Source of the DNA: Candidatus Woesearchaeota archaeon
GTDB taxonomy: Archaea > Nanobdellota > Nanobdellia > Pacearchaeales > GW2011-AR1
NCBI GenBank assembly: GCA_964547875.1
Contig: CAZJPE010000001.1
Coordinates: 176,703-240,702 of the forward strand
Direction: 5' to 3'
DNA: 64,000 nucleotides
The notes beneath the pieces are model-generated. The model was not told where the DNA came from, made no database searches, and was given only the letters and a program-made list of their open reading frames with translations. Positions 1 to 60,329 of this stretch are shown piece by piece (position 1 is the stretch's first letter; each line of letters begins with the position of its first letter). Both the position numbers and the translations under genes were made by a program.

Positions 1-889
1 CATGTGTTAAGGATTTTCCTTCTTCTCTTAATTTATTTGAATCTCTAATTGTAGATTTTAGAGTTTGCAAGAGTTTTTCTTCATTGGATTCGTCAATTAA
101 ATTTGCGTCAAATTCGTTATAAGCTATTCCTGCGCTCTCAATCATGTGTCCATCTGAATTCGCTACATAAGGAAGATTGTTTGCCATAGCAAATGCCTTA
201 GCTTTATCATTGTTTTCTCTTGTATATTTTCCTATTTTAGGAACATTTTTCCAAATTTTTCCAAAACGAATTTGCGCATTATGTCCTTCTACGAAATCCA
301 CTTTGTTCGTATACTCCTTTGCTCTTTCCAAACCAATTCCAAAATGTGCTTCCAGAGAGGGATGTTCAAAGCCATGCAGTAAACCTTTATCATTACAATA
401 ATTAATTGTGTCCTCAAGAGTTTTTAAACTAGTGTTATCAATAGAATTTGGCACTTGATCAGAGCCAATAACTAAATGGTCAAATCTTATAATTTTATCT
501 CCTGAAATTTTTTCTTTAATAATAGGTGTTTGGCCTGATATTAAATAAAGTGTTTTTTTGCCTTTCTCGTCTTCTTTTTCTACAATTATTGAATTATTTC
601 CAAACTTGTCTGCATGATATCCTTCATAATATTTATTGAGATTATTAATGTAAGTTTGGGCAACATAATTAATCCTATCGTGAACTGAATTTAGATAAAT
701 AAGACCCCTTTTATTAACTTGGTCGCTCTCTGATGTAAGTGCGCAGATTGTTATATCTCTCTTGAAACAAGTATCTGCAATTAGTTTAAGGAGATTTTTT
801 CCAGAATATCCTTGAACTCTAAGCCAATAAGGTTCAAAACCTATAGGACCATGATAATGCAAGTCTGCTTTATGCTTTTGAGATGCCAT
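1..889 (-). CDS. PHP-domain metal-dependent phosphoesterase (3' end runs off window)
   Basis: Edge ORF, absent from the ORF track. Reverse translation from the ATG at 889-887 reads MASQKHKADLHYHGPIGFEPYW and stays open to the window edge. DLHYH, EGHN and SDGH motifs fit the PHP fold. Consensus promoter motif at 910-924 (-). Confidence 0.65.
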   Translation of the reverse strand, partial: MASQKHKADLHYHGPIGFEPYWLRVQGYSGKNLLKLIADTCFKRDITICALTSESDQVNKRGLIYLNSVHDRINYVAQTYINNLNKYYEGYHADKFGNNSIIVEKEDEKGKKTLYLISGQTPIIKEKISGDKIIRFDHLVIGSDQVPNSIDNTSLKTLEDTINYCNDKGLLHGFEHPSLEAHFGIGLERAKEYTNKVDFVEGHNAQIRFGKIWKNVPKIGKYTRENNDKAKAFAMANNLPYVANSDGHMIESAGIAYNEFDANLIDESNEEKLLQTLKSTIRDSNKLREEGKSLTH

Positions 890-909
890 AAAATTTAAAT
901 TTCTGTTAA

Positions 910-924
910 GTATATAAATCTTTC
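910..924 (-). promoter_or_regulatory. BRE/TATA-like consensus promoter motif (gaaagatttatatac on minus strand)
   Basis: Matches the recurrent motif. The ATG at 889 lies about 25 nt downstream. Confidence 0.45.
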
Positions 925-1010
925 CCATGTTGCTATTTGAAAGATACTACTAAAACTTATACAAATTTATAAACAAAAAAATTTAAATAATTATCAATTT
1001 AAGAATAAAG

Positions 1011-1694
1011 ATGTCATTCAAAAAATTTGCGAAGGAATTAAATGGAAAAGGCGTTGAAGGCGAGCTTATCAAAACAATTCTTTATTCTTTAATTACTTCA
1101 TTTTTAACTCTTGGAATCCTTTATTTTTTAAAATTTAAAAACATTACAGATTTTATTCCAAAATATGGCTTTTCCCTTTTTTTCTCTGCTCTAAGCTACG
1201 CATTAATCATGCCAACGATAAGGCAGATTAGGGCGTATAAAGAATTGCCATGTATGAGCGGAATGATGGTTGGCATGACAATAGGAATGATATCTGGTTT
1301 CTTGCCTGGTTTTTATGTTGCTTCTACAAATGGAATGTTTATCGGAGGATTTTTCGGAGCTGCTTTAGGGATTGTTATTGGAATTTACAATGGGAAATGC
1401 TGTGGTGTAATGGGAATAATGGAAGGAATAATGGCTGGATTCATGGGAGGATTAATGGGAGCTATGACTGCGTTTATGTTATTTAATGATAATCTGAAAA
1501 TTGCCGCAGTATTAGTCTTTGTAATAGGAGCTGTAATTATGATAGGATTGAATTACATGATTTATAAAGAAACAAAAGAATTAGAAAGAAAATTAGTTGA
1601 AAGCCATTTTTTAACAATATTTTTTACATTTTTATTAATTTCTATTACTACTTGGATTATTGTGTTTGGCCCAAGAAGCGCGATATTTGGATAA
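1011..1694 (+). CDS. Met/Gly-rich polytopic membrane protein (possible metal-related; function unknown)
   Basis: 227-aa ORF with several hydrophobic segments, GxxxG/Met-rich stretches (MSGMMVGMTIGMISGF) and a CC pair. It is immediately followed by a cupredoxin-like gene. Confidence 0.55.
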   Translation: MSFKKFAKELNGKGVEGELIKTILYSLITSFLTLGILYFLKFKNITDFIPKYGFSLFFSALSYALIMPTIRQIRAYKELPCMSGMMVGMTIGMISGFLPGFYVASTNGMFIGGFFGAALGIVIGIYNGKCCGVMGIMEGIMAGFMGGLMGAMTAFMLFNDNLKIAAVLVFVIGAVIMIGLNYMIYKETKELERKLVESHFLTIFFTFLLISITTWIIVFGPRSAIFG

Positions 1695-1724
1695 ATTTAT
1701 ATATTTAATTATAATTATGTAATT

Positions 1725-2117
1725 ATGAGAAATACGACATTAGGAATAATAGCTCTTTTGATAATTGTCTTTGTAGGAGGATATATATTTCTTGGCTCTG
1801 CTAAAACTAACGGGAATTCTATAACAGGGAATGTTGTAAATAATGGAAATAACGGAGAAGTTCAAAAAATAGTTCTAAGCGAAAAGGGACTTAATTATTA
1901 TCCGAATACGATTAATGTAAAAGCAGGAGAGCCTGTAAGCATTTCTTTAGATGAAAAAGTTAAGGGATGTTTAAGGGCGATTACAATTCGTGATTTGGGA
2001 TTGTCTAAATATCTGAAGACGACATTGGATACATTAGATTTTACTCCAACAAAAAAGGGAGCATTTACCATTGCCTGCACAATGGGAATGGGCTATGGGA
2101 AGCTGATTGTTGAATAG
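1725..2117 (+). CDS. Cupredoxin-like domain protein with N-terminal membrane anchor
   Basis: N-terminal hydrophobic helix. C-terminal YYPNTINVKAGEPVSISL...FTIACTMGMGYGKLIVE resembles cupredoxin_1-type small metal-binding domains. Confidence 0.6.
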   Translation: MRNTTLGIIALLIIVFVGGYIFLGSAKTNGNSITGNVVNNGNNGEVQKIVLSEKGLNYYPNTINVKAGEPVSISLDEKVKGCLRAITIRDLGLSKYLKTTLDTLDFTPTKKGAFTIACTMGMGYGKLIVE

Positions 2118-2152
2118 GGCTTAAAATGTTTTTCCTTTCTGAATCAAAAGAA

Positions 2153-3280
2153 TCAACTGGCCTTATGTTCTAACCACATTTTAATTTCCTGAACAATAAC
2201 ATCCAACCTCTTTTTGTCTCTGATATCAGATTCTCGATATACTTTGCATTCAATTCCTTTTTTTGCGTATTCTTCAATAAGTCTTTCAGGAATCCATTTA
2301 TAATCTGGCAATCCTTTCTCTCTACAAAACTCTTCACTGTGCCAATAGCATCCATTAATTTCAATAACTTTAGGTTGCCCCTTAACTTTAAAGTCGGGAA
2401 GTGCAAATCTTCCATCTTCAAGTTTCTTAAACCAGTTGTTCCCTTTCAATCCGGTATAATAGATTTGCCCAGATTGGGCATTCTTCGCATGAGGAACATA
2501 CAATCCATGTTCTTCAAGAGAATTTATAAAAGCATATTCTAAATTATTAGGTGTTCGCTGAGATTTTCTTAATAAATTTTCAATTCGTTGTTCTTTTGGT
2601 AATCCAGATAATGATCCTTTGCGAGCATTCTTAATTCTTTGTTCTGCAGATAATAATGCCAATCCTTTTGGATAAGCTATTATTCCACCCTTTCTTCCAT
2701 TTCCTACTCTTTGTTCCTTTGTAAACTTTGCTAATCCTGCTTTATAACCTAGCTCATTAAATTTCACCCTTTGTTCAGGTGTCAATTGGGACATGGATTT
2801 ATGACCTGTTTGCTGAAACAAGATACGACGCCTGTAATCTATACTTTCCTTGTCAATATTCTCAGAAAGAGTATCTGCTATAGTTTGTGAACAGACCTGA
2901 TAAGACTCTGCTAAGTGGCTATTTGTGGATAATCTTTTTATTCTCCCCTCTTTAAAATCAGTAATTTCTCTTGTAATAAGACCAACTAACTCCTCCGTTT
3001 TTCCACTGAGTTTTTTATGACCCTGATGAGGTTTTCTTTTTTTTGTGCTTTGAGAAAAAAGCTGTTTTGCTCTTTTAAGAAGATCTTCTCTCGATATCAT
3101 ATTATTCCTATTATAGAGCAGATAATTAATATGTGTTTGAGACACATCATACAAAGAAGCTAATTCTTTATTAGGCGTTAATTCTCGGACAGTTCCAGCT
3201 TTATAATTCTCTATTTCTCTCTGAACTCTTTGTATTAATTCTAAACTTTTCTCTAGTGGAATTTCATTTTTTTTCGCCAT
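2153..3280 (-). CDS. Homing-endonuclease-like protein: duplicated N-terminal HTH-like modules, 4 NUMOD3-like repeats, C-terminal Vsr/DUF559-like PD-(D/E)xK nuclease
   Basis: Repeats: LTPEQRVKFNELGYKAG, FTKEQRVGNGRKGG, LSAEQRIKNARKGS, LPKEQRIENLLRKS. C-terminal ALPDFKVKGQPKVIEINGCYWHSEEFC matches the Vsr-type PD...IE..GC(F/Y)WH core. Confidence 0.65.
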   Translation of the reverse strand: MAKKNEIPLEKSLELIQRVQREIENYKAGTVRELTPNKELASLYDVSQTHINYLLYNRNNMISREDLLKRAKQLFSQSTKKRKPHQGHKKLSGKTEELVGLITREITDFKEGRIKRLSTNSHLAESYQVCSQTIADTLSENIDKESIDYRRRILFQQTGHKSMSQLTPEQRVKFNELGYKAGLAKFTKEQRVGNGRKGGIIAYPKGLALLSAEQRIKNARKGSLSGLPKEQRIENLLRKSQRTPNNLEYAFINSLEEHGLYVPHAKNAQSGQIYYTGLKGNNWFKKLEDGRFALPDFKVKGQPKVIEINGCYWHSEEFCREKGLPDYKWIPERLIEEYAKKGIECKVYRESDIRDKKRLDVIVQEIKMWLEHKAS

Positions 3281-3376
3281 TTTATCTTTTATAATAGTAT
3301 CACGATGACTTTATAAATCTTACTATATTAACTACTAATTAGTTAATACAAGAGAGGGGATTTAAAGGATTTGAAG

Positions 3377-3390
3377 AAAGATTTATAAAA
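3377..3390 (+). promoter_or_regulatory. Consensus promoter motif aaagatttataaaa
   Basis: ATG of 3410 ORF about 25 nt downstream. Confidence 0.45.
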
Positions 3391-3409
3391 CTTAAATATA
3401 TCACTCAAT

Positions 3410-50559: not shown

Positions 50560-51759
50560 ATGGGATATCTCATAAAAAAGAGGAATCTTTTGCGTTTTAA
50601 TCTTAGCATAAGGAAATTAGCTTTAATAGCGATATTAACAACTTTTTCTGCTGCGCTTATTGATACAATCTGGGCTATTTATCTTGACAGCTATTTGAAC
50701 AGCCTAACTTTGGTTGGTTTTTTCTCTTCTGCTTTAACTTTTATTTCTTTTATCTCATTTTTTTTATTTATACCTATGATTGAAAAAAAGGATAAAGAAA
50801 AGCTTTATATTTTCGCCTTAGTAATTTCAATATTCTCCTATATATTATTTAGTTTTGTTGAAGAAATTAAGGCGATATTTTTTCTTGCTTTGTTATTGAC
50901 ACTTGCTATAAATTTGAGAATATCAAGCTGGGGCATTATTGTAAGAGACAAATCAAAGAGAAAAGAATTAACTAAGAACGAGGGCATTCTTTATACTGTT
51001 TATAATGCCGGCTGGCTTATAGGACCGCCTGTTGCAGGATATATTGCTTCAAGATTTAATTTTAAAGGAGTATTTTTTTCAGCCGCATTGATTTTGTTTA
51101 TAGCGCTTATTTTATTTGTCAGATTCAAGATAAAAGATCACAAGAAGACAAAGCATATTGACGAAAATGTGCTGAAGAATTTTATTGATTTTTTCAAAAG
51201 CAAGGACAGAGTTGTTGCTTATTTATTGGGGGGAGGAGGTAATTTTTGGTGGGTTTTAATTTATCTTTTCATGCCCTTGTACATTGTTAGAGAAGGATTT
51301 GGAATATTTGGACTAAGCATCTTTTTCATGGCTGTGCTTCTGCCATCTGTTCTCTTTGCATATCCATTTGCCAGACTTGCGAGCAAGATAGGACATAAGA
51401 AGATATTTATTACAGGATATGCTGTTCTTAGCGCTGCGACATTGGCTTGTTTTCTTTTGGGTAATATTTACTTAATATTTGCTTTTCTTGTAATTGCGAG
51501 CATAGGCATTTCAATGCTGGAATCAACAACAGAGGCTTATTTCTTTGATATTTCGACAAATGAAGAAGTGTATAGGTTTTTCGCGCCCTTTAACACGAGC
51601 ATTGACGCCAATCATTTAGTTGCCAAGTTTCTTCCTTCTGTTATCCTTATTTTTCTTCCGTTTAGATTTGTCTTTCTATTCTTCGGGATTTTTATGATTG
51701 GATTTTGCGTCTTAGCTACATGGACGAGGAATATTATTGAGGCAAGGAGAAAGGGTTAA
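50560..51759 (+). CDS. MFS-type transporter
   Basis: 399 aa, about 11-12 hydrophobic helices, and a central basic loop. Confidence 0.78.
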   Translation: MGYLIKKRNLLRFNLSIRKLALIAILTTFSAALIDTIWAIYLDSYLNSLTLVGFFSSALTFISFISFFLFIPMIEKKDKEKLYIFALVISIFSYILFSFVEEIKAIFFLALLLTLAINLRISSWGIIVRDKSKRKELTKNEGILYTVYNAGWLIGPPVAGYIASRFNFKGVFFSAALILFIALILFVRFKIKDHKKTKHIDENVLKNFIDFFKSKDRVVAYLLGGGGNFWWVLIYLFMPLYIVREGFGIFGLSIFFMAVLLPSVLFAYPFARLASKIGHKKIFITGYAVLSAATLACFLLGNIYLIFAFLVIASIGISMLESTTEAYFFDISTNEEVYRFFAPFNTSIDANHLVAKFLPSVILIFLPFRFVFLFFGIFMIGFCVLATWTRNIIEARRKG

Positions 51760-51786
51760 TTTAACGTATGCGATTAAGAGAAGTTG

Positions 51787-51875
51787 TTAGGCGACATATT
51801 ACTCAGTGGGCTCGAAAACGATTACGAATATTTTTCTTTCAGAAAAATTAGGGGGTCGGCTCGAAGTCGCCCTAA
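51787..51875 (+). repeat. Repeat element copy X (TTAGGCGA ... GTGGGCTC ... GGGGTCGGC) with self-complementary ends
   Basis: Blocks at 51787-51794, 51806-51813 and 51852-51860. The ends TTAGGCGAC / GTCGCCCTAA (51866-51875) can pair. T-runs follow. Confidence 0.6.
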
Positions 51876-52645
51876 GAGCTTTTATTATTTTTTTCAAGAT
51901 GGAAAGTCAATTCTGTATCAATTTCTAAAGGACGAGTATATGCTATTAATCTTTTATTTGGATTGTCTGTCCCTGATCCAAAATGATGCCAGATTCTCAT
52001 AACTAAACTTTTCCTAATTGCATCTATGTCTTTACCTAAAGATTCATCATAAGAAGCCCCTACTACTTTTCCAGTTATATTATAATGGTCGCTACCTCTT
52101 GGTCTATGAATATCGATTGTTTCGCATTCTAAATGAGCCAAACATTCTTCAATTAATGGGGGATATACTTCGTGTTGTTGTGGGAAAATAAATGGTTTTA
52201 ATTTAGTAAGATTTGCTAATGCAATTTTATCTTTTAATTTATTCCTTGGATATGGTTGTGCAACAATGTCTAACAATCCTGACGCCCATTTTCCCTCACA
52301 ATTACCGTATAGGAGTTCTCTTGGTGGGACATTTACAATAAATAACCCATTTTGTTTTATGTTAAGATAAGTGTTCATTTTCGCATTAGTTGGCTTCTCT
52401 CCATGTGCTACATGCTGTTTTGTTGCACAAGATATTTGTACATAAGGAGGTTCATAACTTGTGTCCAAGCAAGTTGCAAAGGGGGCAATATCGGTTTTTA
52501 ATTCCCCCCCTATTTTACCAATAGTTGTTATAAATTCAACTGGGTGAGTAGTCAAGAGATATTTAGTCCAAGAAGAGGTAACTTGTATTTTAGAGCAGGG
52601 GCTATGAAAATCAAGCCCGGTATCTATTTTATTTATTAATTTCAT
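51872..52645 (-). CDS. Flavin-reductase-like split-barrel protein (tentative)
   Basis: PVEFITTIGKIGGELKTDIAPFATCLDTSYEPPYVQIS resembles the flavin reductase-like domain. The assignment is weak. Confidence 0.5.
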   Translation of the reverse strand: MKLINKIDTGLDFHSPCSKIQVTSSWTKYLLTTHPVEFITTIGKIGGELKTDIAPFATCLDTSYEPPYVQISCATKQHVAHGEKPTNAKMNTYLNIKQNGLFIVNVPPRELLYGNCEGKWASGLLDIVAQPYPRNKLKDKIALANLTKLKPFIFPQQHEVYPPLIEECLAHLECETIDIHRPRGSDHYNITGKVVGASYDESLGKDIDAIRKSLVMRIWHHFGSGTDNPNKRLIAYTRPLEIDTELTFHLEKNNKSS

Positions 52646-52706
52646 AGTAGTAAAACTATGATAAAAGTATTTAAAATGTTGCTGTAAATATTTTACGACA
52701 TATAAT

Positions 52707-52719
52707 AAAGTTTAAATAG
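52707..52719 (+). promoter_or_regulatory. Consensus promoter motif aaagtttaaatag
   Basis: ATG at 52740 lies about 24 nt downstream. Confidence 0.45.
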
Positions 52720-52739
52720 GTTGAACGGGTCTTAACGAT

Positions 52740-53480
52740 ATGGAAATCATAAAAGCTCTTGAAAAATTCGGACTCTCAGAGAAAGAAGCCAAAGTTTATT
52801 TAGCATGTCTTGAATTAGGGGAAGTTACAGCCAGCGATATTTCATTAAAAAGTAATTTGCCTAGAACCCTAATTTATGACATCTTAGAAAGATTAATAGA
52901 CTTGGGATTAATCTCATACGTTGTTAAAAATAATAAAAAATATTTTACTGCTTCAGACCCTCACGAATTGCAAAGGATACTTAAAGAAAAAGAAGTTGAA
53001 ATAGATAAAATTTTACCCGATCTTGAAAATCTTCAAAAAATAAAGGGATTAAAACGACCGAGAGTAGAAATTTATGAAGGAATTGAAGGAATGAAAACAA
53101 TTATGAATAACATTCTAAGGTCAAATGTAAGAGAGTTTTATGCTTACGGGAGTTCCAGATCGTCTTACGAGATAATGCCTGCTTTCATGGATGATTGGCA
53201 TAGGCAAAGAATTAAGAAAAAAGTTATTATGAAAGTATTATATAATAATACAAAACAGGCAAGAGAAAAAGTAAAAAATATTCCAGAAACTTTAAAATAC
53301 GCTGATTATAAGTTTATGCCGATAGAATTAGAGTCACCAACAGCTACATTAATATATGAGAATAAAGTTGTTTTACAATCATGGACAAAAGAACCCTTTG
53401 CGGTACTAATAGAAGATGAAAGAATGGCGGAAAATCAAAAAAGATATTTTGAGGAGTTGTGGAAGATAGCTCAAAACTAA
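52740..53480 (+). CDS. TrmB-family transcriptional regulator
   Basis: LEKFGLSEKEAKVYLACLELGEVTASDISLKSNLPRTLIYDILERLIDLGLI. Confidence 0.85.
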   Translation: MEIIKALEKFGLSEKEAKVYLACLELGEVTASDISLKSNLPRTLIYDILERLIDLGLISYVVKNNKKYFTASDPHELQRILKEKEVEIDKILPDLENLQKIKGLKRPRVEIYEGIEGMKTIMNNILRSNVREFYAYGSSRSSYEIMPAFMDDWHRQRIKKKVIMKVLYNNTKQAREKVKNIPETLKYADYKFMPIELESPTATLIYENKVVLQSWTKEPFAVLIEDERMAENQKRYFEELWKIAQN

Positions 53481-53511
53481 ATATTTATAATAAATCAATC
53501 CTTATGGAATC

Positions 53512-54093
53512 ATGGAAGAAAAAAAGATCGACAAAAGTGATGAGAAAAAGAAGGAAAGAGTTTCAATTTTTATTGATGGAAGTAACCTTTATCATGGTTT
53601 GAAGGTTCTTGGAATTAAGAGAATTGATTTTAATGAATTTACGAAATTACTTGCTGGGGGTAATGAGATAAAAAGAATTTTTTATTATACTGCTAGAATG
53701 GATAGAGCTTTTGATGAACAAAGATTCCTTAAACACCAAAAATTTCTTCGGAAATTATCTTTGATTCCAAAGTTTAAGATAGTTTTTTGTACATTTAAGA
53801 AAATTGTGGAAAAAGACGGGAAAATCAGATATGAAGTTAAGGGAGATGATGTTCAATTAGCAAATGATATGCTTGTAGGGGCCTATGAAGATTTTTATGA
53901 TATTGCAATATTAGTTTCGGGGGATGAAGATTTTAAGCCAGTAGTTCGAACTGTTAAAAGATTAGGAAAAAGAGCTGAAAATATATTTTTTAGAGGAGGA
54001 TCTTCATCTCGTTTAAGAAAAACTTGCAACTCTTCTAAGAATATAAGATTTATTTTAGAAGAATTAAAAAGGCGTCCTGGCATTACAAAGTAA
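53512..54093 (+). CDS. NYN/LabA-like domain protein
   Basis: RVSIFIDGSNLYHGL...DDVQLANDML...ILVSGDEDFKPVVRTVKRLGKR. Confidence 0.8.
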   Translation: MEEKKIDKSDEKKKERVSIFIDGSNLYHGLKVLGIKRIDFNEFTKLLAGGNEIKRIFYYTARMDRAFDEQRFLKHQKFLRKLSLIPKFKIVFCTFKKIVEKDGKIRYEVKGDDVQLANDMLVGAYEDFYDIAILVSGDEDFKPVVRTVKRLGKRAENIFFRGGSSSRLRKTCNSSKNIRFILEELKRRPGITK

Positions 54094-54159
54094 CCCAGGA
54101 CAGTTATTAATATTATAATAATATGCTACTTTAAAAAACCTTCGGTTTGTCAAAAATTT

Positions 54160-54650
54160 TCTTGCCGACCCCACAAAACCCCGAAGATACTTTTGAGCCC
54201 ACCTGCGTGGATACGCAAAATTCTTAGAATTTTTGGGACGCTGCGCTCTCATTTCATTCGCCCTCGCCTAATAGACATTTACAGGAAAATGCCTCAGCTC
54301 GGCATTTTGCCCAAATTTGCATTTTTCAAGATAGTTCGCTTTGCTCAAAATAATATTGCAAACTTCTCTAAATCGCATACGTTTGCAGTAACTTTAATAC
54401 AATAATGAGCAAACAATTTTGGTTAATTTCTGGTTTTAGACTCATCTGTGATTTCCCTTTTTCGTAAGAAAAAGGCATCAACCTGAACAATTCGGATACT
54501 CTCCTTCATTTTCAGCCAAAAAGGCTTTACTTCAACCGAAAGGAGATTTGAAGAATTGTTTTTATATAAACCCTTAGAGAGGAGGCCCAATCTTATTAAC
54601 TAGATAGATTGAACGTCCTCTCCCGGGCAAAAAGAGGTGATAATATTTAA
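54160..54650. ncRNA. Candidate structured noncoding RNA locus (class unknown)
   Basis: At least nine perfect or near-perfect stems of 6-8 bp within about 450 nt. The strongest are 54296-54318, 54350-54357/54416-54423, 54367-54397, 54466-54485 (GTAA loop), 54540-54563 and 54581-54637. There are local GC-rich patches, no credible ORF, and a promoter motif at 54672-54687 (-) aimed into the locus. Confidence 0.4.
54174..54281 (-). repeat. Repeat element copy Y (same three blocks as X, inverted orientation, with insertions)
   Basis: Minus-strand blocks: TTAGGCGA (54281-54274), GTGGGCTC (54212-54205), GGGGTCGGC (54182-54174). Order and orientation match X. Confidence 0.6.
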
Positions 54651-54790: not shown

Positions 54791-55639
54791 ATGGATAAAA
54801 ATAGCGAGAGCATTCAGCATAAAAATTTGAGCCAGAGAATAGGACAGGAGCAGATTCACGGCTTGCTTTTTAGCGACAAATTGAGCTGGCAGTCTATAAT
54901 TTATGATTTAATTAACACTGAACAGCTGGATCCGTGGGACGTTGATATCTGCTTATTGGCAAATAAGTATTTAGAGAAGATAAAAGAACTTGAAGAGGCG
55001 AATTTTTTTATGTCCAGCAAAGTTTTATTGGCTGCTTCTTTGCTGTTGAGAATTAAATCAGAGATTTTATTGAATTATTATATTCCTGGCTTGGACGATA
55101 TATTATTTGGCAAGGAAGAGAAGAAGAATTATGTGCAGGAAAGAATTGAATTAGACGACGAGATTCCTGAATTAATTCCAAGAACGCCCTTGCCAAGAGT
55201 AAGAAAAGTGACATTGCATGAATTGATGAGTGCTTTGGGAAAGGCTATTAAGACAGAGACAAGAAGAATTAAAAGGATTGTTGTTGACAGGCAGAGGGAA
55301 TTTGATACTATGGCGGTAATTCCAAGAAAAAGCATTGACTTAAAGGCGCAGATAATAGTTTTATATAAGAAATTAAAAGACTATTTTTTAAAAAATAAAG
55401 ATGAAAAAATAGCTTTTTCAAGTTTTTGCGATAAGAAAGGCAAGGAGAAGATATTTCATTTTTTACCTTTATTGTATTTGGACAATCAGCATAGGATTTT
55501 GCTTGAGCAGGAAAATCATTTTGACGAGATTTGGATATGGCTGAAACACATACATGACAAAAAGCACGCTGATATTTTAGAGGCTGCGAGGAGAGAGGTT
55601 GAGGAAGCGATGAATAGGGAAGATGTTGAAGGAGAATAA
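54791..55639 (+). CDS. scpA: Segregation and condensation protein A (kleisin)
   Basis: LDPWDVDICLLANKYLEKIKELEEANFFMSSKVLLAASLLLRIKSE. Confidence 0.85.
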   Translation: MDKNSESIQHKNLSQRIGQEQIHGLLFSDKLSWQSIIYDLINTEQLDPWDVDICLLANKYLEKIKELEEANFFMSSKVLLAASLLLRIKSEILLNYYIPGLDDILFGKEEKKNYVQERIELDDEIPELIPRTPLPRVRKVTLHELMSALGKAIKTETRRIKRIVVDRQREFDTMAVIPRKSIDLKAQIIVLYKKLKDYFLKNKDEKIAFSSFCDKKGKEKIFHFLPLLYLDNQHRILLEQENHFDEIWIWLKHIHDKKHADILEAARREVEEAMNREDVEGE

Positions 55640-57005
55640 AAAAGAAGATGAGAAATTAGCTATAAATGACGCTTTAAATTTGGCTGTAAAATATCATAAA
55701 GAGGGAAGACTAAAGCAGGCAGAAATTCTTTATAGAAAAATTTTAGTTGAAGATTCTAATAATGCTGACGCGATGCATTTATTGGGCGTGATTGTGCATC
55801 AACTAGGCAAACATGAAGAGGCTATTGCGTATATTAGCAAGGCTATCAAATTAAATCCAAATAATGCTATTTATTATAATAATTTGGCAATGGTTTATGA
55901 TTCCTTAAATAGAGAAGAAGAATCTACTAAAAATTTTAAAAGAGCATTAGAAATTGATTCTAATCATACAAATGCTCACCTTGCATATTATAATTTAGGC
56001 GTTTGTTATGCTGATAAAGGTGATATCACAAGTGCGCTTGAATATTATGATAAAGCAATAGAGCTCAATAGGAATTTTTATGACGCACGCTGGAATAGAG
56101 GGCTATTATTGCTTACCTCAGGAAGATTTGAAGAGGGTTGGAGAGAATATGAATGTAGATTTAAAAAGAAAAGTCCAACTGATTCCAGGGTTTTTGACAA
56201 GCCGCAATGGGATGGCTCTTCCCTTAAAGGCAGAAGAATTTTAATTCTTTCAGAACAGGGTCTCGGAGATAGTATTCAGTTTATGCGATACATCCCCTTA
56301 GTTAAAGATAAAGTAGGCTATGTTATTTATGAATGTAAAAAAGAGCTGAGAAGATTGTTTGATGACTTCCCAGGAATTGACGAAATTGTAGAAAAAGAAA
56401 AAAATACGATTCCCAATGTAAAATTTGATACATATACTTATCTTATGAGTTTACCAGGAATATTTAATACGAGTTTAGATAATATTCCGAATAAAATTCC
56501 TTATTTGAAAGCTAATCCTGGACTTGCGAAAAATTTTAAACTAGAATTTAATAATGATAACTTTAAAGTTGGGATAGTTTGGGCAGGAAATCCTGAACAA
56601 GATAATGATAAGAATAGGTCAACAACATTTGAGAAATTCAAGGCTCTAAAAAATATTCAGGGAATACAATTATATTCCTTGCAAAAAGGCGAGGCTGAAA
56701 AACAATTAGATGATTCTGCAATAATTAATATGGCTGATAAAATAAATGATTTTGCTGATACTGCCGCCATTATCGAGAATTTAGATCTAGTTATTTCAGT
56801 AGACACTTCAGTAGCTCATTTAGCCGGGGCAATGGGTAAACCTGTATGGACTTTATTGACATTTATGCCAGATTGGCGTTGGTTATTAGACAGAAACGAC
56901 AGTCCTTGGTATCCAAATATGAAATTGTTTAGACAACAAAAATTAGGAGATTGGGATTCTATGTTTGATGAAGTTAGTGAGGAATTGGCTAATTTAGTTA
57001 AATGA
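55623..57005 (+). CDS. TPR-repeat protein fused to glycosyltransferase family 9-like domain
   Basis: N-terminal TPRs (AEILYRKIL...AMHLLGVI...). C-terminal ILILSEQGLGDSIQFMRY...VGIVWAGN...ISVDTSVAHLAGAMGKPVW. Confidence 0.75.
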   Translation: MLKENKKEDEKLAINDALNLAVKYHKEGRLKQAEILYRKILVEDSNNADAMHLLGVIVHQLGKHEEAIAYISKAIKLNPNNAIYYNNLAMVYDSLNREEESTKNFKRALEIDSNHTNAHLAYYNLGVCYADKGDITSALEYYDKAIELNRNFYDARWNRGLLLLTSGRFEEGWREYECRFKKKSPTDSRVFDKPQWDGSSLKGRRILILSEQGLGDSIQFMRYIPLVKDKVGYVIYECKKELRRLFDDFPGIDEIVEKEKNTIPNVKFDTYTYLMSLPGIFNTSLDNIPNKIPYLKANPGLAKNFKLEFNNDNFKVGIVWAGNPEQDNDKNRSTTFEKFKALKNIQGIQLYSLQKGEAEKQLDDSAIINMADKINDFADTAAIIENLDLVISVDTSVAHLAGAMGKPVWTLLTFMPDWRWLLDRNDSPWYPNMKLFRQQKLGDWDSMFDEVSEELANLVK

Positions 57006-57010
57006 TATTA

Positions 57011-57775
57011 TTAGTTGAAACTCTTTAAATATCGTGCGACCCTTGAGGCAATACCTCTTTTTGAATATATAAAATCTCTATTAGCAGTGTAAACCATTAA
57101 GTCTTTAGGAATAACTCCCTTTCTATATGGTAGCATATTTCTCATTTGTCTTACATAACCACATTGTTTCCAAAATAAATTAAAATCTACACTATCATTT
57201 CCTACATGAAAACAATCTGATTCTATTCCAGGCCATTGTGAAAGACCGATATAAACACCCTTTACATTAACCCCATTTGATCTTAAATAATTAGTCACTG
57301 TTCTTAATGTTCTTCCACTAACAAAATCTATATCTGTTAATAATACACTCTGACTTTTTTGCAATTGCCTTAAATCAGATGTATCTATTTCTGGCTGATC
57401 CATTTTTCTTTTATAATGAGAAAAATCTATGTTAAATATGGGCAAGCCTATCATTTCAAAAATTTTGGCAAAAGGGACGCCAGCTTCTTTAATACCAACA
57501 ACAGCATCATAATCTCTACTTAAACTAATCGCACTGTCAGCATGAGCTAAAAGAGGTGTGTCAAGATATCTTTGCCAATCATTACCATATGTCCAATTAG
57601 AAAGAAGATATGCTTCAACCTCTATCATTTTCCCATCTGGACTTAATCTTCCTCTCTCTAAAACATCCTCTAAATTTCCGTCATAGTTTATAGCGTCCTT
57701 TGTAAGTTCAGGATTCTGAATAGGAGAATGAGGTTCTACTATAAGGGCCTGTTGTAAACATAATTGCATTAACAT
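57011..57775 (-). CDS. Phosphoribosyltransferase-like protein (divergent)
   Basis: YDAVVGIKEAGVPFAKIF...SVLLTDIDFVSGRTLRTVTNYL resembles a PRPP loop. Confidence 0.5.
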   Translation of the reverse strand: MLMQLCLQQALIVEPHSPIQNPELTKDAINYDGNLEDVLERGRLSPDGKMIEVEAYLLSNWTYGNDWQRYLDTPLLAHADSAISLSRDYDAVVGIKEAGVPFAKIFEMIGLPIFNIDFSHYKRKMDQPEIDTSDLRQLQKSQSVLLTDIDFVSGRTLRTVTNYLRSNGVNVKGVYIGLSQWPGIESDCFHVGNDSVDFNLFWKQCGYVRQMRNMLPYRKGVIPKDLMVYTANRDFIYSKRGIASRVARYLKSFN

Positions 57776-57956
57776 GTTTGTATTGTCTATACTTAGTTTA
57801 TAAATCTTTCTATTTAGTATAACTAATTAATAGTAACAAAGCAAAAATTTAAATAAGGTTTATTCTGTCTAAGAATATGGAAAATGGAATGCCACCTGCT
57901 CGAGAAGAATATAAAATTGAAGAATTAGCTAAATTAAGAGAAATGCTTATTAGAAA

Positions 57957-59057
57957 ATGAAAAAAATAGTTCTATCAACAGATATTGGAACAGATGGGGA
58001 TGATGCACTTGCACTTGACATATGTATGAATCATTCTGAAATAGAAATTAAGGGAATTTATGTGACAAATGGGATTGTTGAAACGCGAGCTAAATTAGCA
58101 AAAAGCATAGTTGATAAAGCAAAATTTAAAACACAAGTTGCGACAGGCAGTGAGTATCCATTATCTGGCCACCCCAACCCATTTGTTTTAGAATATGAAG
58201 AATATGCAATTCCTAAAAAATATAAAGATAAATCACTTGAGGAATTATCAATTAGAAGAAATGGAGTAGAATCTCTTGCAGAAAAAGTCTCCGAGGGGAA
58301 TATTATTATCGCGAGTATTGCTCCTTTAACAACCATAGCAGAAGCATTAGAAAAATATCCTAATCAATTAAAAAAAGTTAAAGAGGTTTATATTATGGGC
58401 GGAAGAGAGGGAGAATATGAACATAACTTCAAATTTGATCCAGAAGCAATTAAAATTATATTAAAATCACATCTTCCAATAATTATTGTTCCAGCTGACA
58501 TATGTGACAAATTAAGATTAAGAAAAGACAAACTAGGAAAATTAATATCTTCTTATGGAAAGATGGTTTATGATTCAATAAGACCTAAATTAGCACATGA
58601 TACCACATTCAATTATAATGAAGCTTTAGTATCAAAACAAATGGATAACAATTCAATAGAATGTTATATTAATTTAATGTTGCAATCGAATAGATTCCCA
58701 TTTCATATATCAGAGTCATTTAGGATGCTTACTGACAATAAAATAGCAATGAAAAAACCGGATGAATATTTTTTGAATATGGCGGTATTAAAACATATGA
58801 TAGAGACTACACCTGAAATAAAATTTAGAAAAGATATTTTAGATTTTTTAAATAATCACCAAATAGAAAAAATTTCTGTGCATGATGTCTATACAATTTA
58901 TTCTATTATACATCCTGAAAAAACCAAAATAGAACATTGTAAGATTGAAGTGGATAATGAAGGAAGAATGACAAAAAATAAAGGGTCTAAACATAAAATT
59001 ATAACTAATTTAGACTATGAACATTTTGAAAAATTCATAGATCAATATTTATATTGA
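57957..59057 (+). CDS. Inosine-uridine-preferring nucleoside hydrolase family protein
   Basis: KKIVLSTDIGTDGDDALALDICMN (DxDxxxDD fingerprint). Confidence 0.8.
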   Translation: MKKIVLSTDIGTDGDDALALDICMNHSEIEIKGIYVTNGIVETRAKLAKSIVDKAKFKTQVATGSEYPLSGHPNPFVLEYEEYAIPKKYKDKSLEELSIRRNGVESLAEKVSEGNIIIASIAPLTTIAEALEKYPNQLKKVKEVYIMGGREGEYEHNFKFDPEAIKIILKSHLPIIIVPADICDKLRLRKDKLGKLISSYGKMVYDSIRPKLAHDTTFNYNEALVSKQMDNNSIECYINLMLQSNRFPFHISESFRMLTDNKIAMKKPDEYFLNMAVLKHMIETTPEIKFRKDILDFLNNHQIEKISVHDVYTIYSIIHPEKTKIEHCKIEVDNEGRMTKNKGSKHKIITNLDYEHFEKFIDQYLY

Positions 59058-59081
59058 TTATCCCAAAGTAAACTAATAATT

Positions 59082-60329
59082 TTATTTCCCAAATTTAGCG
59101 AATAATTGCTTTTCTGAAAGCAGTTTTTCCTCGCCGGAAGACATTTCTTTCAGTTTATATTTTTCTTTTTCTATCTCTGCATCGCCGAGAAATATAGCGT
59201 AAGGTATTCTCTGGGCATTTGCGAAATCTAAAGCCCTGCTTGGCTGGCCTTCTGTTATTGAGCACGAAATATTATTCTTTCTTAGTTTTTTAGCCAACTT
59301 TATTGCTTCCTCCTCTTGGTTGAAAGAGATGATTAAAACCTGTGGAATAGATTCTACCTCTAATTTCGCTATTTCTTCTTCGCATAATCCCATCAGCGCT
59401 TCAATACTGAAAGAAATTCCCACAGCCGGAATATCCCTGTTTACAAATTTTCCGACTGTTTTGTCATATCTCCCTCCTGCAACTATTGACGTTTTCTTTA
59501 AGGGAATAACAAATTCAAATACGTTTCCAGTATAGTATGAAAAGCCCCTCGCCAAGGTAAGATTTAATTTTGTCTTAACTCCATAAGTCTTGGATTTTTT
59601 AATTAATTCTTCCAGTTCATTAATGCCATCAAATGCATTATCCTTAAAAAATTCTACGCTTTTTTCCAGCAATTTGAATAGCGTTATTATTTGATTCGTA
59701 CTAGCATATCTTCTAAGATTTGCCTTTACAATGTCTGAACCTAATTTTTCTATTTTATCCAGCTCTCTCAAAACTTGCCTCTGCTCTCTTATCTCAACAC
59801 TTTCAATTATTGCGTTTAAGAGCTTTCTGTTGTTAACTTGTATTTCAAAGTTATTTATTTTCAGCTCTTTTAATATATCTGACGCAAGAGCTAGGCATTC
59901 TACATCCGCTGCTGTTGAAGAATCGCCGACAATGTCTGCGTCGCATTGTATAAACTGGCGAGTTCTTCCCTGCCTTATCGGCTCATCTCTGAAAACAGGA
60001 CCTATTTGATATCTTTTGAAAGGTGTTTTTATATTCTGGTTTTCTCTGAATATTCTCGCTAACTGAAATGTAAACTCATATCTCAATCCTAGATTCCTAC
60101 CTCCTCGGTCCTGTAGTTTAAATCGCTCCGCAACAGCATCATCTTCTTGCTCATTACTCATAGAATCAGGCTTCATTAATTCATCAAATTCTATTATTGG
60201 AGTTTCAATTGGCAAGAAGCCGTAAAGCTTGTAATATTTTTCTGCAATTTTCATTATTGCTTCTCTTTTCAGTGATTCTGGCGGCAGATAATCCTGAAAA
60301 CCTTTAACTGTGCCTACTTCTAATCTCAT
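59082..60329 (-). CDS. hisS: Histidyl-tRNA synthetase
   Basis: GFQDYLPPE, LRYEFT, KRYQIGPVFRDE, RQFIQCDADIVG, GGRYD. Confidence 0.92.
   Translation of the reverse strand: MRLEVGTVKGFQDYLPPESLKREAIMKIAEKYYKLYGFLPIETPIIEFDELMKPDSMSNEQEDDAVAERFKLQDRGGRNLGLRYEFTFQLARIFRENQNIKTPFKRYQIGPVFRDEPIRQGRTRQFIQCDADIVGDSSTAADVECLALASDILKELKINNFEIQVNNRKLLNAIIESVEIREQRQVLRELDKIEKLGSDIVKANLRRYASTNQIITLFKLLEKSVEFFKDNAFDGINELEELIKKSKTYGVKTKLNLTLARGFSYYTGNVFEFVIPLKKTSIVAGGRYDKTVGKFVNRDIPAVGISFSIEALMGLCEEEIAKLEVESIPQVLIISFNQEEEAIKLAKKLRKNNISCSITEGQPSRALDFANAQRIPYAIFLGDAEIEKEKYKLKEMSSGEEKLLSEKQLFAKFGK

Follow-up and report, generated by a model that had tools for sequence, protein, structure and literature searches.

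Structured intergenic elements of Nanoarchaeia arranged in arrays beside a XerA-like recombinase: two dispersed members flanking a three-gene block

The 64,000-nucleotide stretch of DNA analysed here (the window) comes from a Candidatus Woesearchaeota archaeon (assembly GCA_964547875.1, contig CAZJPE010000001.1, positions 176,703 to 240,702) and contains three genes standing between two GC-rich elements in inverted orientation, X on the plus strand and Y on the minus strand. In window coordinates, the genes are a flavin-reductase-like gene (51872..52645, minus), a TrmB-family regulator gene (52740..53480, plus), and an NYN-domain gene (53512..54093, plus), and the Pfam families Flavin_Reduct, TrmB, and NYN confirm the assignments that an initial annotation had made from the sequence alone. 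The same annotation regarded X and Y as diverged copies of one structured element, which is borne out by the present analysis: they are paralogues, two dispersed members of a family of elements that is widespread in Nanoarchaeia (Woese-/Pacearchaeota-type DPANN archaea) and apparently has not been described before.

X and Y share three blocks in the same order and orientation, at the positions originally reported, namely TTAGGCGA (51787-51794, plus, in X; 54264-54271, minus, in Y), block B, GTGGGCTCRAAA (51806-51817, plus; 54191-54202, minus), and block C, GGGGTCGGC (51852-51860, plus; 54164-54172, minus). The spacings of ~11 and 34 nt in X and of ~58-61 and 18-22 nt in Y agree roughly with the earlier values. 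The 12-mer GTGGGCTCRAAA and the 9-mer GGGGTCGGC are carried by X and Y only in the whole genome (947.6 kb, 13 contigs, 33% G+C), in line with the earlier view that a chance match is unlikely, and from the base composition we estimate a chance of roughly 1e-9 that the three blocks recur in order within ~100 nt. The GC-rich 8-mer, on the other hand, carries little weight by itself. TTAGGCGA is common, with 23 copies in the genome, mostly in coding sequence, and it was rejected as a marker of the element, the four other window copies lying in unrelated sequence contexts. Its six occurrences in the window compare with 1.6 expected, and the four extra copies form two minus/plus pairs ~1.6 kb apart, 22818(-)/24477(+) and 35620(-)/37222(+), which are otherwise unlike the element. 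A fourth block, GTATGCGATT(A/T)AGAGAAGTT, is also common to X and Y, being located immediately 5' of TTAGGCGA in X and ~95 nt upstream of it in Y. The outer limits of the two copies had thus been drawn too short: the true outer starts are 51762 (plus) for X and 54384 for Y, which runs on its own, minus strand from 54384 to 54161. A genome-wide scan for the core of the conserved 5' motif with <=2 mismatches returned X, Y, and two weak sites only.

A search with the stem gacatttacag/ctgtaaatgtc led to full paralogues elsewhere in the genome, at C2:99303, C4:99454, and C7:13916 (contig:position), and the covariance model R1, built on the 5' domain, brings the total to five full copies in addition to X. 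The search for further copies, which the initial annotation had proposed, has uncovered a large family with members in many other genomes. On the strand that folds, the 5' core (77-170 nt) forms a three-way junction. It reads (ATTG-N3-4)-UAACA, the 5' strand of helix P0, followed by a 2-3-nt bulge, the 5' strand of helix P1, AAGU-[H1]-AUUU, GGG-[H2]-CC, the 3' strand of P1, and UGUUA, which closes P0. H1 and H2 are variable hairpins, the loop of H2 often being UGCAA or GAGCYGA, while the frame AAGU-[H1]-AUUUGGG-[H2]-CC is almost invariant. The shared upstream block corresponds to the 5' strand of the 11-bp P1, the 3' strand of which is located just before TTAGGCGA. The two strands of P1 differ between copies and yet remain complementary, as in the pairs GCGATTAAGAG/CTCTTAATCGC, GACATTTACAG/CTGTAAATGTC, GGCATTAACAG/CTGTTAATGCC, GCGATTTAAAG/CTTTAAATCGC, AGAATTTAAAG/CTTTAAATTCT, and AGGATTTAGAG/CTCTAAATCCT. 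The 3' part of 100-250 nt contains, besides GAGxGCARCG and G-rich boxes, a variable hairpin and either CGCAGAGU or a sequence related to it. The three blocks recognized at the outset are thus the junction of P0 with the 3' part and two pieces of the G-rich tail.

Several unpaired motifs are nearly invariant throughout the family, i.e., AAGU, AUUUGGG, the UGCAA/GAGCYGA loops, GCGCAGCG, and CGCAGAGU, while the segment directly after P0 is variable between copies. The elements are always intergenic, YGCAR loops recur in them, and T-rich hairpins or T-runs stand behind many copies. Some copies are mosaics that break at module borders: the copy on C4 has a C2-like 5' part from about P0 (C4 99453, the R1 match starting at 99454) and a C7-like 3' part. 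This copy belongs to a two-element mini-array after rpl15e (C4:97655-99721) with winged helix-turn-helix, RelE-like, and apparently frameshifted NYN genes, and the contig ends inside the second element. We also considered GCGATTTAGAGAAGTT as a promoter composed of a B-recognition element (BRE) and a TATA box and rejected it, since it is the 5' strand of a covarying helix and the tRNA promoters of the genome look different. By eye, TAACATCGC-GATTAA-GAGAAGTTA in the 5' motif has 6/9 dyad symmetry, which is not kept in all P1 variants.

In Y, the 5' three-way-junction domain (54268..54384, minus) is complete. P0 pairs 54384-80 with 54273-69, and P1 pairs 54376-66 with 54284-74, its 5' strand GCGATTTAGAG matching the 3' strand CTGTAAATGTC at 8 of 11 positions. 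H1 (54365-54313), GGG (54312-10), and H2 with a GAGCUGA loop (54309-54286) follow in the expected arrangement. The 3' part (54161..54273, minus) contains UAUUAGGCGA, the GAGAGCGCAGCG motif, a variable hairpin AAAAUUC/GAAUUUU, block B at 54202-191, and block C at 54172-64. The R1 match of Y scores 58.2 bits (E 2e-9 to 9e-9). The P1 of Y is a hybrid, the 5' strand being of the type seen in a genome of another genus (G012) and the 3' strand, together with H1, resembling the other copies in the same genome; like the mosaics, it breaks at a module border. BLAST against 60 relatives finds Y at 74-77% identity over ~160 nt in G009, of the same genus, and in G012, with hairpins that differ in sequence yet pair through compensatory changes, and shorter matches in further genera.

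X, in contrast to Y, is strongly reduced. Its 5' motif (51762..51785, plus) comprises the P0 5' strand TAACG (51762-66), the bulge TAT, the P1 5' strand GCGATTAAGAG (51770-80), and the junction AAGTT (51781-85), and is identical to the family consensus wTAACATCGCGATTAAGAGAAGTT. Because this motif, UAACGUAUGCGAUUAAGAGAAGUU, joins GUUAGGCGAC directly, H1, H2, and the 3' strand of P1 are precisely missing, and X also lacks ~55 nt of the 3' core. What remains is a 24-nt piece of the 5' strand motif, fused precisely to GTTA, and a shortened Y-type 3' part (51786..51875, plus), which covers the stop codon of the flavin-reductase-like gene and consists of a GTTAGGCGAC...GTCGCCCTAA closing helix, block B (51806-17), a hairpin (51832-48), and block C (51852-60). 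The self-complementary ends TTAGGCGAC / GTCGCCCTAA noticed earlier are real; the tail is closed by GGCGAC/GUCGCC, and the same GGCGNCC/GGNCGCC closing helix is found in copies of two other genomes (G253 and G178). The segment 51780-51885 folds with z = -2.2. R1 misses X in the genome scan, as expected from the deletion of its core, and BLAST against the 60 relatives gives low-complexity matches only. Y is accordingly a full-length copy with a mismatched hybrid P1, and X is a remnant with two internal deletions.

Each of the two is followed by the T-run described before, at 51880..51895 (plus), in a convergent intergenic spacer, and at 54140-54133 (minus). Beyond Y, the tail ACAAACCGAAGGTTTTTTAAAG (54129..54150, minus), which is BRE/TATA-like or terminator-like, abuts the NYN stop codon and is kept in G012, G003, and G059. 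The related sequence (A)ACCGAAGGTTTTTTAAAG lies on the strand opposite to NYN, at its stop, not only here (54129-54150, minus) but also in the loci L003 (~1420-1445), L004 (140-175), and L008 (1501-1525), with 89-96% conservation that extends to other genera and as far as another family. Possible roles are those of an antisense promoter or of a terminator that NYN cassettes have in common. The order NYN gene, then Y-type element on the opposite strand, is also kept in G012 and G003. On the other side of Y, a promoter-like box, TTTATATA (~54568-61), and an ORF (open reading frame) of 28-55 aa are found upstream on the strand of Y (54423..54574, minus), and Y could be the 3' end of a small transcript from this box and ORF.

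The covariation analysis that the initial annotation had deferred until more copies were available could be performed with 89 distinct copies and shows strong covariation. In an alignment that was fitted to R1, which favors pairing, and that is composed of mutually related sequences, the paired cells amount to 94.4% versus 79.7% in shuffles, the double-sided changes to 288 versus 82, and the covariation score to 0.412 versus 0.137, with none of the 500 shuffles reaching the observed values. Sliding the partner by 1-3 columns lowers the pairing to 36-52%. The outer helix UAACA...UGUUA is 97.7% paired over these copies, its AAC/GUU being nearly invariant (X reads GTTAGGC). Among the non-Watson-Crick cells, 60 are G.U/U.G and 18 are A.C/C.A, leaving out one constant G.U pair that is kept in 87 of the 89 copies. 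The excess of G.U over A.C indicates that one strand folds, either as RNA or as single-stranded DNA.

The elements might accordingly be genes, or transcribed parts, of a multicopy structured noncoding RNA (ncRNA) of ~200-400 nt acting in trans or in cis, for example on the neighboring cassette genes or together with a recombinase. In that case, Y would be a paralogue that is functional or in decay, and X a pseudogene. In addition to the strand-specific folding and the conserved G.U pair, such a proposal is supported by the many conserved unpaired motifs, the recurring YGCAR loops, the long conserved 3' part, and the T-rich hairpins or T-runs after many copies. A TATA-like box occurs ~180 nt upstream of Y on its strand, and TATA-like words are slightly enriched 29-36 nt upstream of the P0 TAAC (~20-25 nt upstream of ATTG). 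However, no promoter at constant distance emerged from the sequences upstream of 86 copies, only ATTG at -10 to -6 being conserved, and copies with a broken P1 persist. Single-sequence folding of Y is no better than that of shuffles (z = 0.2 and -0.46). Rfam 15 gives nothing for X and Y at the gathering threshold, nor at E up to 10, and finds two tRNAs only in the window; ARAGORN also returns nothing for X and Y. A 5S rRNA, considered on account of the UUAGGCG start, was rejected, the 5S being elsewhere, at C2:3999. The signal recognition particle RNA, RNase P RNA, H/ACA, and C/D classes were also considered and were dropped, their motifs being missing.

R1 matches are present in 99 of 251 genomes of the order, in 60 of 112 genera (E <= 1e-3), and, in a class-wide sample, in 100 of 301 genomes and 89 of 225 genera (E <= 1e-5), the largest number of copies in one genome being 13. 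Where the copies form arrays, all of them are on the same strand, i.e., they are direct repeats. In many genomes, neighboring elements stand ~0.5-3 kb from one another. In 17 arrays with 54 intervals, the spacing has a median of 942 bp (range 230-3399), and 36 intervals contain exactly one ORF, counted at >= 70 aa. The cargo is very mixed: 87 cassette ORFs match 90 Pfam families, none of which is found in more than two ORFs, including radical SAM, Mrr, APH, TrmB, methyltransferases, GT2, ABC, HAD, UDG, HIT, and an IS200 transposase. Genes for NYN and TrmB proteins turn up repeatedly as cargo, among them the NYN gene that had been pointed out earlier at the edge of a repeat-bounded block. A first impression that about two thirds of the cassette ORFs are antisense failed on counting, 36 of them being on the fold strand and 45 on the opposite one.

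An all-against-all comparison of the ORFs that flank the arrays yields one recurrent family, a tyrosine recombinase of ~270 aa, whose gene, in 8 of the 16 loci, comes directly after the last element on the same strand. Conversely, 9 of the 30 Xer-like loci of the order have an R1 match within 1.5 kb, always upstream and co-oriented, while about 0.1 such neighbors would be expected by chance, as inferred from the copy density. In a further 3 loci the distance to an element is 1.8-2.5 kb, and in 7 the contig breaks off just upstream. In the recombinase tree, a well-supported first group follows taxonomy, corresponds to XerA, includes the gene on C6 of the present genome, and has no elements nearby. 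The second group holds every element-linked gene, including that on C8, and the occurrence of four families within a single clade of this group suggests horizontal movement. The proteins have the domains Phage_integrase and Phage_int_SAM_4, and their best match is the archaeal XerA model NF040815 (cut-off 220), with 269.9 bits for C6, 230-234 bits for the other array-linked proteins, and 205 bits, below the cut-off, for C8. With the integron-integrase model TIGR02249 all remain below the cut-off of 265 (179-216 bits). Where this model matches in two stretches, these end at ~178-203 or begin at ~237, so that the middle of the profile, in which we take the IntI-specific insertion to lie, is left uncovered, and the recombinase thus appears to be devoid of this insertion.

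In the metagenome-assembled genome (MAG) itself, the C8 recombinase gene (C8:89-889) is at the start of its contig, and the array is absent. The ENA assembly ERZ27284378 of the same organism, however, has an identical recombinase protein inside a 169-kb contig, with 12 elements upstream of the gene over 14 kb, all on its strand. The cassettes between them encode TrmB (twice), B12/radical-SAM with a SnoaL-like protein, Exo_endo_phos with a MazE/PemK pair, a short-chain dehydrogenase, a methyltransferase, several small ORFs, an rve insertion sequence, and an NYN gene; topA is next after the recombinase gene. The rve-family insertion sequence stands between the last element and the recombinase gene (L168, 15517-16389). 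At another array-linked recombinase locus (L114, 1-1286; G245:C4), srp54 adjoins the recombinase gene and has an apparent intein-like insertion after the GxGKT motif.

These observations bear on two of the possible functions. An ordinary family of RNA genes would not be expected to form arrays with unrelated cargo or to be tied exclusively to a single recombinase clade, and we therefore regard an ncRNA gene family as possible but doubtful. We have also considered that the elements are intergenic repeats of the REP/BOX kind, which would act as bidirectional terminators or insulators and spread passively, their link to the recombinase being incidental. X and Y are indeed between convergent gene ends with T-runs behind them, and the elements are always intergenic. 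Nevertheless, the class-wide conservation of sequence and structure with compensatory changes goes far beyond the needs of a terminator, and the upstream, same-strand element at 9 of 30 recombinase loci, against ~0.1 expected, is carried by a separate recombinase clade. A pure terminator role leaves this link unexplained and is, in our view, improbable.

The locus in the window can be compared with that of a close relative (L124), whose flanks are 82-93% identical at the DNA level on both sides, with the MFS gene (50560-51759) and the ScpA gene (54791-55639) each showing 88% amino-acid identity. The block composed of X, the three genes, Y, and the small ORF (51756..54567) is absent there, and 3.9 kb of other genes take its place. 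The homology ends at the MFS stop codon, a few bases from the start of X, and resumes ~185 nt past the 5' end of Y, the intervening segment containing the promoter-like box and the small ORF on the strand of Y. A second variable island, of 2.1 kb with a phosphoribosyltransferase-like gene and a nucleoside hydrolase gene (~57000-59100), lies 2.4 kb from the first and is also missing from this relative, both of its flanks aligning at 83-85%.

The inverted orientation of X and Y around 2.5 kb and the absence of the block from the close relative are what one would see if X and Y were the terminal inverted repeats of one non-autonomous transposon, or of an invertible segment, carrying the three genes, as the initial annotation had suggested. 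The family is, however, directional and normally direct-repeated in arrays, and X differs from Y by two large deletions. Furthermore, neither a target-site duplication nor a clean empty site is found in the comparison with L124, and the right boundary is not at the end of Y. Each element is, moreover, paired with its own adjacent gene, and the pair of NYN and Y occurs elsewhere without X. Of all the explanations considered, this one is the least probable. What survives of the earlier proposal is the connection with gene-cassette turnover, not the single mobile unit. As each element adjoins the 3' end of a separate unit, X that of the flavin-reductase-like gene and Y that of TrmB and NYN, the block reads best as two back-to-back, divergently transcribed cassettes in a variable island outside the main array.

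Several features, taken together, argue for site-specific recombination at the elements: their link to the recombinase, their ordered direct repeats, the single ORFs of unrelated content in the intervals, the differences among relatives, and the mosaic copies. We thus favor, with a probability of about 0.55, a role of the elements as folded or duplex DNA recombination sites of the array-linked recombinase, the active form being inferred to be DNA rather than RNA. According to this proposal, the XerA-like recombinase would use the elements as its sites, probably as a folded single strand like attC or the folded attP of the CTX phage, and cassettes would be excised, captured, and reshuffled. Two such cassettes would stand back to back away from the main array, one with the flavin-reductase-like gene ending in X and the other with the TrmB and NYN genes ending in Y. 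Y may have been partly overwritten by other copies of the same genome, which would account for its mismatched P1.

A number of points speak against DNA recombination sites. No circular junctions and no clean empty site were obtained as direct evidence of recombination; in the close relative, the block is replaced by other DNA, and no element was found in the 3.9-kb replacement. The cassette ORFs have no polarity, unlike those of integrons, and the recombinase appears to lack the integron-integrase insertion. To our knowledge, the conserved part of the element is much longer than any attC or dif site. The nearly invariant unpaired bases fit an RNA and a large protein-DNA assembly equally, the constant G.U pair is more typical of RNA, and Y could be transcribed, given the TATA-like box and the small ORF that precede it on its strand. 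The fitting of the alignment to R1 and the relatedness of its sequences must also be kept in mind here. The single folding strand, the G.U pair in 87 of 89 copies, the conserved unpaired bases, the variable segment after P0, and the location of the element always just upstream of, and co-oriented with, the recombinase gene also led us to consider a variant in which transcription of the elements would supply the array-linked Xer paralogue with a structured RNA cofactor that scaffolds or guides recombination. The bridge or seek RNAs of IS110-family recombinases offer a loose parallel, and we consider this variant very improbable.

As recombination sites, the elements can be compared with several known systems. 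The comparison with attC and the CTX attP draws in part on a study of canonical integrons in Archaea, which consist of IntI and bacterial-type attC and for which only six IntI genes were found (Ghaly et al. 2022, PMC9668308). The similarities to integrons include arrays of mostly single-ORF cassettes of very mixed functions with imperfect fold-back sites in between, a tyrosine recombinase at one end of the array, solitary sites elsewhere, and copies that resemble each other within the same genome. As in attC, structure is conserved above sequence, one strand is fold-competent, and AAC...GTT stand at the two ends, comparable to the pairing of the inverse core and core (RYYYAAC ... GTTRRRY). The 2-3-nt bulge between P0 and P1 can be seen as an analogue, but only that, of the extrahelical bases of attC. 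An attC site has 57-141 nt and a simple architecture of R box, spacer, L box, and variable loop with extrahelical bases, whereas the element is a three-way junction with an 11-bp P1, near-invariant junction bases, and a conserved 3' part of 100-250 nt. Furthermore, the recombinase is XerA-like, appears to lack the IntI-specific domain near patch III, falls below the TIGR02249 cut-off, and is encoded downstream of and co-oriented with the elements, while the integron integrase gene is divergent. Integron ORFs are co-oriented with the site after the ORF; those of the element cassettes show no such polarity.

With the Xer/dif systems, the elements share a Xer-family recombinase and one or more sites directly upstream of its gene, and in XerS/difSL and XerH/difH a single recombinase has its site next to the gene. 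In the CTX phage, a folded single-stranded attP is the Xer substrate, and the fold-back strand of the element could create a duplex site in a similar manner. The pdif modules of Acinetobacter likewise contain toxin-antitoxin and accessory genes bounded by Xer sites, and cer/psi have a long accessory sequence (~200 bp) beside a short core. In contrast to these systems, the link is carried by a second, horizontally moving Xer paralogue, the taxonomy-following XerA having no elements nearby; a 28-bp site composed of two inverted arms of ~11 bp around a 6-8-bp spacer could not be clearly recognized in the element; and the elements are direct repeats in long arrays rather than alternating inverted sites. 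REP/BIME, BOX, and Correia repeats are also multicopy, structured, intergenic, and sometimes modular or mosaic, and can terminate transcription. They are, however, specific to a species or genus, while the element is found class-wide with compensatory changes and forms ordered arrays tied to one recombinase clade. In the literature on archaeal integrons and in Xer/dif reviews, we found nothing on such an element or on a Xer-linked cassette array in DPANN archaea. The family thus appears to be new and to resemble an integron built from different parts.

If the elements are indeed recombination sites, a large share of Woese-/Pacearchaeota-type DPANN archaea would carry an integron-like platform for gene capture, made of a XerA paralogue and large three-way-junction fold-back sites. 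Gene gain matters to these hosts because of their tiny genomes and their dependence on other cells. Such a platform would explain the shuffling of accessory genes, among them those for toxin-antitoxin pairs, NYN nucleases, TrmB regulators, restriction enzymes, and methyltransferases, as well as the assembly breaks and the drop-out of such regions from bins, as for the MAG of the window, which is without its own 12-element array. After attC and the CTX phage, it would also be the third natural system whose recombination sites may function in the form of a folded single strand; if the RNA were instead a cofactor, this would be the first RNA-dependent tyrosine recombinase system. In annotation, elements like X and Y would serve as markers of cassette borders and variable islands, and they should not be entered as ORFs or unnamed RNAs. 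The recombinase is small enough for bench testing.

Two further repeated sequences of the genome were noted. A 63-nt hairpin-plus-TATA segment at C7:33837-33899 is 98% identical to C8:1-63, just upstream of the recombinase gene. A separate repeat family, AAAATTTGGGTGAGTGAAACGAACTGCTTA...GATAAGCAAAG, forms a long hairpin and is found at C7:15820-15950 and C7:33630-33900.

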